From a virus: a stretch of DNA of 19,325 bases. Positions 10,358 to 10,935 of this stretch are shown in pieces. Location: the UHGV virus genome UHGV-0136548; one strand, written 5' to 3'. Position 1 is the stretch's first letter; every line of letters begins with the position of its first letter. The translations under genes and the position numbers were made by a program. The notes beneath the pieces were generated by a model. That model searched no databases. It was not told the DNA's origin and was given only the letters and a program-made list of their open reading frames with translations.

Positions 10358-10864
10358 TTGAGTATTTTCAATAAACACGCACACCAGGAACGTCCGTACA
10401 TCGTCATAGTAGATATTGATGGGACGATATCAGAGGCAACGGAAGACAGGCTGCATTTACTTCCACCACCTGGCAAAGGTGCATTAACAGAGCACTGGAA
10501 CGAGTTTAACCTTGCCTGTGACACTGATGCTCCCATCACTCCAGTTATTGATATGGTGCGCCAGTTGTCCGGCATTTACACCCTCTGGTTTGTAACCGGG
10601 CGCTGTGAGATAGCCAGGGATAAAACACGAGCCTGGTTGCGTAAGCACGTAACAAATGGGGCGGAGCCTTTGCTATCTATGCGTCCTGCCACCGATGACA
10701 GAAATGACGGTCCAGCAAAGATTGATCTCCTGAAGAAAATTGGTCTAAGTAAAATTGCGTTCGCGCTGGAAGATAAGATTGAAGTGGCGCGTGTTTTCAG
10801 GAGTCACGGCGTACTTACGTTAATGGTCAGGGAGTATGAAAACGCGCTTCTCCACCAACAATAA
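10358..10864 (+). CDS. HAD-superfamily phosphatase-like protein
   Basis: 168 aa. YIVIVDIDGTI matches HAD motif I (DxDGT); LWFVTGR resembles motif II; ATDDRNDG is a candidate motif IV. Confidence 0.55.
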   Translation: MSIFNKHAHQERPYIVIVDIDGTISEATEDRLHLLPPPGKGALTEHWNEFNLACDTDAPITPVIDMVRQLSGIYTLWFVTGRCEIARDKTRAWLRKHVTNGAEPLLSMRPATDDRNDGPAKIDLLKKIGLSKIAFALEDKIEVARVFRSHGVLTLMVREYENALLHQQ

Positions 10865-10880
10865 TTGCTCTAATAAATAT
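10864..10880 (+). promoter_or_regulatory. 17-bp operator-like site (ATTGCTCTAATAAATAT; 16/17 to recalled P1 C1 operator consensus)
   Basis: Best match in the window; overlaps the stop codon of the HAD-like gene and precedes the next gene block. Confidence 0.5.
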
Positions 10881-10912
10881 TGATTTTTAAAACAGAGAAA
10901 GTGAAAATAAAA

Positions 10913-10935
10913 ACATGCCGCAAGGCGCGGCATGT
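10913..10935 (-). terminator. stem-loop oriented as a leftward intrinsic terminator (or 5' leader structure)
   Basis: ACATGCCGC-aaggc-GCGGCATGT, 9-bp perfect stem. On the minus strand it is followed by TTTTTATTTT. Confidence 0.35.

Follow-up and report, generated by a model that had tools for sequence, protein, structure and literature searches.

The stretch of DNA analysed here (19,325 nucleotides, referred to below as the window) is 97% identical between positions 10300 and 11800 to phage P1 as well as to numerous phages and phage-plasmids of the P1 type, as judged by sequence comparison. Moreover, the order of its genes, pmgL...ppp-pmgQ / pmgR-pmgS / pap / pmgT-like ... hot-humD-phd-doc, parallels that of the 78-89 kb region of P1, and we assign the window on these grounds to a P1-type phage-plasmid, the c1 gene of which lies outside it. 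The region of interest begins with pap, the product of which carries a HAD_PNKP domain (PF25109, E=3e-11) and which is preceded by a strong plus-strand terminator found at 10305-10333 by terminator scanning. It continues through a repressor operator, two predicted promoters and a hairpin into a block of accessory genes, and all supported genes between 10963 and 19325 are transcribed rightward. The features on which the analysis rests are as follows.

10358-10864, plus strand: pap, encoding a HAD-type 3'-phosphatase, taken from the list of open reading frames and orthologous to P1 pap
10864-10880, plus strand: C1 repressor operator OpmgT (former Op88), ATTGCTCTAATAAATAT, with 16 of 17 positions agreeing with the consensus, annotated in P1 and P7
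10865-10893, plus strand: predicted promoter P2pmgT, with -35 element TTGCTC (10865-10870) inside the operator and -10 element TAAAAC (10888-10893), placed by alignment with the P1 annotation
10880-10908, plus strand: predicted promoter P1pmgT, with -35 element TTGATT (10880-10885) abutting the operator, a 17-nt spacer and -10 element GAAAAT (10903-10908), from the P1 annotation
10909-10912, plus strand: run of A between this -10 element and the hairpin stem, which together with the -10 element forms GAAAATAAAA and the complement of which is the minus-strand U-tract UUUUAUUUUC
10913-10935, both strands: hairpin with a perfect 9-bp stem and the loop AAGGC, from folding, terminator scanning and covariation
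10938-10954, plus strand: leader motif CCAATCAATCAC, conserved across lineages, with the Shine-Dalgarno sequence AGGAG (10950-10954)
10963-11049, plus strand: small open reading frame of 28 codons, MNTAFKIIMAAIYFWLFSITFGGIVAHG, predicted to form a single hydrophobic helix, with AGGAG 8 nt upstream
11053/11054, no strand: junction of backbone and cargo, located by alignment, to the left of which the sequence is conserved across the whole P1 clade
11059-11787, plus strand: pmgT-like gene (242 aa, phrog_874), with which the long genes of the rightward accessory block begin

The C1 operator and its promoters

The C1 operator has a 17-bp asymmetric consensus, ATTGCTCTAATAAATTT, and 22 such operators have been counted (PMC8546580). 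A scan of the whole window for sites with no more than three mismatches to ATTGCTCTAATAAATTT returns four matches, where 0.09 would be expected by chance, and none of 200 shuffled sequences reached four. The best of the four is ATTGCTCTAATAAATAT, which has a single mismatch, in line with the initial annotation of this DNA, which had singled it out as the best operator-like site with 16 of 17 positions matching. The other three matches, at 5099-5115 (minus strand), 8723-8739 (plus strand) and 8772-8788 (minus strand), carry two or three mismatches each and are the P1 sites O26/Op82 and OpmgRa/OpmgRb (Op86a/b). In the P1 record (NC_005856), the bases orthologous to ATTGCTCTAATAAATAT are annotated in a protein_bind feature as the monovalent C1-controlled operator OpmgT, which 'corresponds to former Op88', and the same site appears in the P7 record as a protein_bind feature named Op(hea). 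The window operator aligns base for base with both, its spelling being that of P7 (...AAATAT) where P1 has ...AAATCT. In P1 and P7 alike, the 17-bp asymmetric site occupies this position, over the pap stop codon and ahead of a pmgT-type block, and the 190 nt around it are almost the same as in the window; no essential difference from the window is seen, although the cargo diverges after 11053. By this alignment we identify 10864-10880 as the already catalogued C1 operator OpmgT/Op88. The overlap with the stop codon of a HAD-like gene, also described in the initial annotation, is confirmed, in that position 10864 both closes the pap stop codon (TAA, 10862-10864) and opens the operator, and the operator is kept over the pap stop in all distant lineages that we compared. 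The earlier suggestion of a regulated operon boundary likewise proves correct and was already known, both from P1, where OpmgT is accompanied by two predicted promoters, and from P7 as Op(hea).

The window contains exactly two copies of a decamer, TTTTTAAAAC, one at 8743-8752 and the other at 10884-10893, and each begins 3 nt past an operator copy. The count expected by chance is 0.10, and none of 200 shuffled sequences contained two copies, so that the shared tail previously noticed behind this operator and the 8723 copy is real and sits at an equal offset in both places. The P1 record lists both P2pmgT and P1pmgT as predicted sigma-70 promoters, and at the 8723 copy it lists PpmgR, in which TTGCTC inside the operator is followed after 17 nt by TAAAAC. 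The tail is shared because it comprises the end of the spacer together with the predicted -10 element TAAAAC of an operator-embedded promoter, and we regard TTTTTAAAAC as a predicted promoter element. The OpmgRa/OpmgRb (Op86a/b) and PpmgR region of P1, at 8723-8788 in the window, thus resembles the present site in its operator-embedded TTGCTC, in the TAAAAC 17 nt downstream, in TTTTTAAAAC and in having a hairpin adjacent to the promoter. At Op86, however, an 11-bp palindrome lies between two operators in inverted orientation, overlaps the -10 element and is bounded by runs of A or T on both sides, giving it the look of a bidirectional terminator, whereas Op88 consists of a single operator with its hairpin past a second, downstream -10 element.

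Comparison across the family distinguishes between the two promoters predicted here. In 10 representative sequences from about seven lineages, the -35 element at operator positions 17-22, the 17-nt spacer and the bases A2, A5 and T6 of the -10 element are invariant; the -10 element of the P1pmgT type reads GAAAAT, AAAAAT, AATAAT, CAGAAT, AAGAAT or CATCAT, and the -35 element abutting the operator in distant lineages reads TTG[A/T]TT. The operator-embedded -10 element is poorly kept outside the P1 clade, with between one and four of six positions matching. On this comparison the family-conserved promoter is the predicted downstream one, of the P1pmgT type, and not the one embedded in the operator. 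We infer that P1pmgT is the promoter used and, from the usual spacing, that transcription would start at about 10914-10916. The literature searched, with the P1 genome paper lying outside that set, yielded no map of P1 start sites or terminators.

Anatomy and conservation of the hairpin

The arms of the hairpin, at 10913-10921 (ACATGCCGC) and 10927-10935 (GCGGCATGT), are 100% complementary and form six G-C pairs. The fold energy is -18.3 kcal/mol (z=-3.2) for a 66-nt segment of the plus strand and -18.1 kcal/mol (z=-4.2) for a 51-nt segment of the minus strand. A terminator scan reports the hairpin on the minus strand only, with the tail TTTTATTTTC, as the second-listed of 25 sites in the window, and on that strand all the elements of an intrinsic terminator are present, namely a G+C-rich 9-bp stem, a 5-nt loop and the U-tract UUUUAUUUUC. 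The plus-strand tail, ATCCAATCAATC, contains three U in 12 nt. The hairpin is therefore much as first described, a perfect 9-bp structure that resembles a terminator only for leftward transcription; it is real, and it is of an ordinary kind. Its stem begins 4 nt past the conserved -10 element (10903-10908), at the predicted start of transcription, and it lies about 50 nt past the pap stop codon in all lineages.

To follow the hairpin beyond the P1 clade we used a distant set consisting of Cronobacter phage JK004 and the loci L173-L178, L183, L184, L186 and L188, obtained through protein-cluster look-ups. JK004, the Pap protein of which is 72% identical by tblastn, is the only intermediate found by tblastn against phages; among the other searches for distant relatives, genome contigs gave two loci and IMG/VR gave members of the P1 clade only. 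The order of elements is kept in the distant set, with the operator over the pap stop followed by the -35 element, the 17-nt spacer, the -10 element, the hairpin, the leader motif and a small open reading frame, here encoding 53 aa. The stems outside the P1 clade differ in sequence, being GGCCGC/GCGGCC, TTGGCAGTCAC/GTGACTGCCAA, TTGGCGGTCGC/GTGACCGCCGA, TTAGGCAGTCGC/GCGACCGCCTAA and AAGGCCAC/GTGGCCTT. Nevertheless, the helix begins 2-7 nt past the -10 element in all lineages possessing the small open reading frame, the hairpin of L188 being ambiguous. MAFFT gave no alignment in which P1 and non-P1 hairpins were in register; the formal count of pairs was accordingly made on seven non-P1 sequences, and the P1-type stem was compared with the non-P1 stems using a script anchored on the loop. 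In the seven sequences, 88% of cells are paired, compared with 18-47% in slid registers. Changes on both sides of the helix are seen in 6 of 11 pairs, and the covariation score was reached by none of 500 shuffles, the seven non-P1 sequences being few and related. The P1-type stem contributes further pair types at helix positions 6-9 in the loop-anchored comparison. Taken together, these comparisons give solid, though not overwhelming, covariation among few and related sequences, and they point to structural selection on the hairpin.

The U-tract is not conserved along with the helix, and lineages outside the P1 clade keep the hairpin only. The 12-nt tail on the minus strand contains eight or nine U in the P1 clade versus four to six in the other lineages, in which the right-hand neighbours are all transcribed rightward. 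The A-run, for its part, hardly varies within the P1 clade. The conserved feature thus appears to be a helix at the predicted start of a C1-controlled transcript, and the terminator tail an addition made in the P1 clade. A 9-nt loop, nCnCTnnCA, is conserved among the non-P1 lineages while their stems drift. G.U wobbles single out neither strand: in the P1 clade three variant types favour an RNA read from the plus strand and one an RNA read from the minus strand, and between lineages the favoured strand varies. L182, which has no small open reading frame, is an exception to the arrangement described here; it has a hairpin that spans the -10 element and is followed by a U-tract on the plus strand, and carries CAATCAGAGG in place of the leader motif.

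The small open reading frame and the cargo junction

The leader is conserved as CAATCA[C/T]nGGAGC in every lineage that retains the small open reading frame. The 28-aa frame of the window is absent from the P1 reference annotation, and the exact protein has been deposited solely as 'hypothetical protein'; it has no match in Pfam or NCBIfam. Its homologues in relatives are 53 aa long, share the pattern M..FK...A.Y.W and, in the manner of ordinary operon genes, run 4 nt into the following gene. On this evidence, the gene that comes first after the operator is an unannotated frame for a predicted membrane protein at 10963-11049, rather than the 242-aa gene. The boundary ahead of a new gene block that the initial annotation had drawn here is consequently retained, and the start of that block is moved from the 242-aa gene to the 28-codon frame with its strong Shine-Dalgarno sequence.

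To the right of 11053, a position that falls in variable region 8 of P1-like phage-plasmids (PMC9603915), two arrangements are found, either a rightward block (pmgT-like, with a gene beginning MKGEVKERGMIFNDEMVRAIL) or a leftward type IC hsdMSR cassette. We counted the latter using a chimeric query in which this site was joined to the 3' end of hsdR, at a coverage of at least 80% in plasmid records. Leftward hsdR lies beside the site in 261 of the 588 plasmid records that carry the whole site, and a set of 92 distinct P1-clade loci, drawn mostly from IMG/VR viral contigs, divides into 27 with leftward hsdR and 65 with the rightward block. Between 29 and 44% of relatives therefore carry a convergent type IC hsdMSR cassette, the end of which lies some 194 nt from the right-hand side of the hairpin. 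In the annotated example pXD35003 (NZ_CP089136; L006), the cassette is located between the small open reading frame and phd/doc, hsdM-hsdS-hsdR run leftward from the phd/doc side, and the hsdR stop codon is 194 nt from the hairpin. The sole hairpin between hsdR and 10913-10935 has no U-tract on either strand, and no canonical terminator was found in this interval, so 10913-10935 would be the first one met by an hsd transcript. The earlier remark that no leftward gene is nearby consequently holds within the window, where no credible leftward gene was found to the right of the hairpin, and fails for the relatives; a gene transcribed toward the hairpin, as expected for a leftward terminator, is absent from the former and present in those of the latter that bear hsd. 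The hairpin is kept in both cargo classes, and comparison of hsd-bearing with hsd-free relatives reveals no difference in the conservation of the A-run and the hairpin, and hence no differential signal of selection for a terminator.

The association of this junction with restriction genes has precedents. In the P1 record, a remark on 84263-84482 points out that it matches the sequence following the EcoDXXI hsd locus and R124/3 hsdR. Tyndall et al. 1997 (Mol Microbiol 23:729; reference 364 of PMC12707154) reportedly found type IC hsd loci to be bordered by P1 sequence. These loci share the junction of the window site and differ from the window, which has a rightward accessory block and no hsd cassette.

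Possible roles of the hairpin

Because the hairpin occupies a fixed place in distant lineages in which the U-tract is missing, we read it as the 5'-terminal stem-loop of a C1-controlled mRNA. Our preferred explanation, to which we assign a probability of about 0.55, combines the Op88 operator and its promoters with a hairpin that acts as a 5'-terminal leader stem-loop and, in the P1 clade, also as a leftward terminator; we infer both of these RNA-level functions from the arrangement and its conservation. In the lysogen, C1 bound at 10864-10880 would occlude the two overlapping sigma-70 promoters. Inactivation of C1 would then permit transcription rightward from about 10914-10916 into the small open reading frame and on into the variable accessory block, giving an RNA that opens with the hairpin and continues through the unstructured leader CCAAUCAAUCAC, the Shine-Dalgarno sequence and the small frame to the cargo. 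The likeliest effect of the hairpin would be to shield this mRNA from decay that depends on the 5' end, by analogy with stem-loops of the ompA type. Emory, Bouvet and Belasco reportedly described such 5'-terminal stabilising stem-loops of E. coli mRNAs in 1992. The present hairpin shares with them a stable structure within a few nucleotides of the predicted 5' end, an unstructured leader rich in A and C, and a Shine-Dalgarno sequence, the likeness being positional only. In the P1 clade, the A-run in addition gives the complementary strand the form of a canonical intrinsic terminator, so that leftward transcription might be stopped short of the operator, promoter and pap; this second function would matter in relatives that bear hsdMSR and would be latent in the window.

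The opposite weighting, in which the hairpin is mainly a leftward intrinsic terminator that insulates the operator, promoter and pap from antisense transcription out of the cargo (hsdMSR, for example) and any rightward effect is incidental, deserves consideration and strikes us as possible but doubtful. Its merits are the canonical anatomy of the minus strand, with the second-listed terminator-like site in the window, the frequency with which leftward hsdR abuts the site, the lack of another canonical terminator between hsdR and the hairpin, and the near invariance of the A-run in the P1 clade. The last of these has another explanation, however, because the A-run overlaps the -10 element and discriminator of the conserved promoter. 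Moreover, distant lineages keep a covarying hairpin in the absence of both a U-tract and a leftward neighbour, and in the window, as in P1 and P7, every gene over the next several kb on the right-hand side is rightward. The antisense-termination device postulated in the initial annotation is thus plausible for the P1 clade, given a canonical leftward terminator with hsdR about 194 nt away, and is probably not the reason for which the hairpin is conserved, since at least four distant lineages have a covarying hairpin in this place, just past the -10 element, and lack the U-tract. A role at the other end of an RNA, in which an intercistronic hairpin would stabilise or serve to process the 3' ends of pap transcripts reading through from upstream, by protecting them from 3' exonucleases, would account for the constant distance of about 50 nt from the pap stop codon, and a hairpin that has no U-tract on the plus strand, and so does not terminate, could block such enzymes. 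This role is nonetheless unlikely in our view; it has no need of a hairpin held 2-7 nt from the -10 element, and a strong plus-strand terminator is present upstream of pap at 10305-10333.

Two further proposals fare worse. The presence of a small hydrophobic frame with a strong Shine-Dalgarno sequence directly to the right of the hairpin might suggest that the latter ends a short cis-antisense RNA covering the ribosome-binding site, in the manner of a type I toxin-antitoxin system with the 28-aa peptide as toxin; such an RNA would be about 70 nt long if started near CATAAT (10989-10984), and permissive Rfam searches give minus-strand matches to GcvB (E=0.017) and IsrK (E=4.1). No minus-strand promoter-like site was found there, however, and CATAAT is TATGGC in JK004 and so is not conserved. 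In addition, relatives lack the U-tract, and their 53-aa frames, with the 4-nt overlap, look translationally coupled to the next gene. The Rfam matches lie far below the gathering scores (20 bits for GcvB, compared with a threshold of 42), look to be driven by the terminator and were rejected, the whole window being free of Rfam matches at gathering thresholds. In view of the missing antisense promoter, conservation and family matches we rejected the toxin-antitoxin proposal, and consider an antisense RNA of this type very improbable. That a perfect 9-bp inverted repeat near a promoter is a DNA site for a dimeric regulator, or a chance palindrome, is barely credible, given that the stems differ wholly between lineages while complementarity is kept, as is the signature of a nucleic-acid helix and not of a site read by a protein through its sequence, and that chance is made improbable by the z-scores (-3.2 and -4.2) and by the retention of the hairpin in over 90 loci. 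A more elaborate scheme, a dedicated module of P1-family phage-plasmids, would join a rightward stem-loop, recognised in a sequence-specific manner (the conserved 9-nt loop of the non-P1 lineages would fit this) by a phage or host RNA-binding factor that tunes expression of the exchangeable accessory or defence cargo, to a leftward insulator of the C1 operator, with the induced Op88 promoter also reading antisense into hsdR and so damping restriction during lytic growth; we regard this dual module as improbable.

Overall, the regulatory architecture of this region is ordinary and largely known, and the analysis adds to it only in small ways, namely the conserved geometry of the promoter, an unannotated small open reading frame, and the link between the terminator face of the hairpin and a slot for type IC hsd genes. 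Put differently, a hairpin conserved in structure at the predicted transcript start faces, in the P1 clade, a slot at which type IC restriction cassettes are exchanged. These observations may be of use in the engineering of P1 phagemids and in studying the means by which phage-plasmids keep swappable cargo insulated from their core regulation, their significance being small beyond a tidier P1 annotation. Traces of the slot are also seen elsewhere, bases 10970-11053 being all that is kept in about 280 plasmids of other than P1 type, a good many of which are conjugative; in the example examined, an IncF plasmid, the fragment adjoins hsdR and is cut off by IS1.

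The small ORF behind Op88 and the recombination junction

The gene nearest downstream of Op88, the C1 repressor operator that overlaps the pap stop codon, is a small ORF, most of which recurs in an 84-bp piece ending near a junction.

10963-11049, + strand: small ORF of 28 aa, hydrophobic, with a strong SD
10970-11053: 84-bp piece that takes in the greater part of this ORF and GGGG
11053/11054: sharp recombination junction
11871-17225: cargo block behind the pmgT-like gene, rightward genes of unknown function

The small ORF has no annotation in the P1 reference record and no family match in Pfam or NCBIfam, and more distant P1-like elements carry homologues of 53 aa with a 4-nt overlap into the following gene. 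To the right of the junction lies either a rightward gene, in which approximately the first 21 residues (MKGEVKERGMIFNDEMVRAIL) are conserved and the remainder is variable, giving variants of 193-243 aa, or an hsdMSR cassette in leftward orientation. The cargo block, which contains Ead/Ea22-like and DUF551 genes together with several PHROGs lacking annotation, is unlike P1 and also unlike pZ0117EC0062-2, a plasmid identical elsewhere that has a PAPS-reductase-family gene in its place. About 280 non-P1 plasmids, of which many are conjugative, carry the 84-bp piece by itself. In L004, an IncF plasmid and the sole example examined, the piece has a type I hsdR gene as its neighbour on one side, and IS1 truncates it on the other; it is apparently what remains of the P1 flank beside the type IC hsd cassette.

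Terminator-like sites upstream of Op88

The sites below resemble terminators and lie to the left of this operator.

8723-8788: inverted C1 operators Op86a/b around an 11-bp palindrome, AAAACGTGATG...CATCACGTTTT
10305-10333, rightward: terminator-like site between pmgS and pap, from the terminator scan

The palindrome between Op86a and Op86b has an A-run before it and a T-run after it, and it looks like a terminator for both directions. It also overlaps the predicted -10 of PpmgR; transcripts from this predicted promoter would start within the palindrome and escape termination there. Among rightward sites of this kind in the window, the scan lists the one between pmgS and pap first; it consists in the scan output of an 11-bp stem followed by TTTTTCGTCC, and it is without annotation in the P1 record.

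Hairpins in distant lineages

Hairpins outside the P1 clade (L005 2637-2657, and those of L173, L174, L175, L184 and L186) have wholly different stems around a semi-conserved 9-nt loop (ACGCTATCA, GCACTACCA, GCGCTTCCA; consensus nCnCTnnCA), to which the P1-clade loop, AAGGC or AAGGGGC, is unrelated. Because the loop is semi-conserved while the stems change, these sequences hint that the non-P1 loop may be recognized in a sequence-specific manner. The small ORF is absent from the corresponding locus of L182, a more distant relative whose Pap is 59% identical to that of L173, the query.

L182 1989-2090: operator ATAGCTCTAAAAAATAT and 12-bp hairpin region

Here the -10, GAAAAT, lies inside the loop of the 12-bp hairpin, and CTGCTTTTAT follows the hairpin; this arrangement resembles a terminator that acts rightward and overlaps the promoter.
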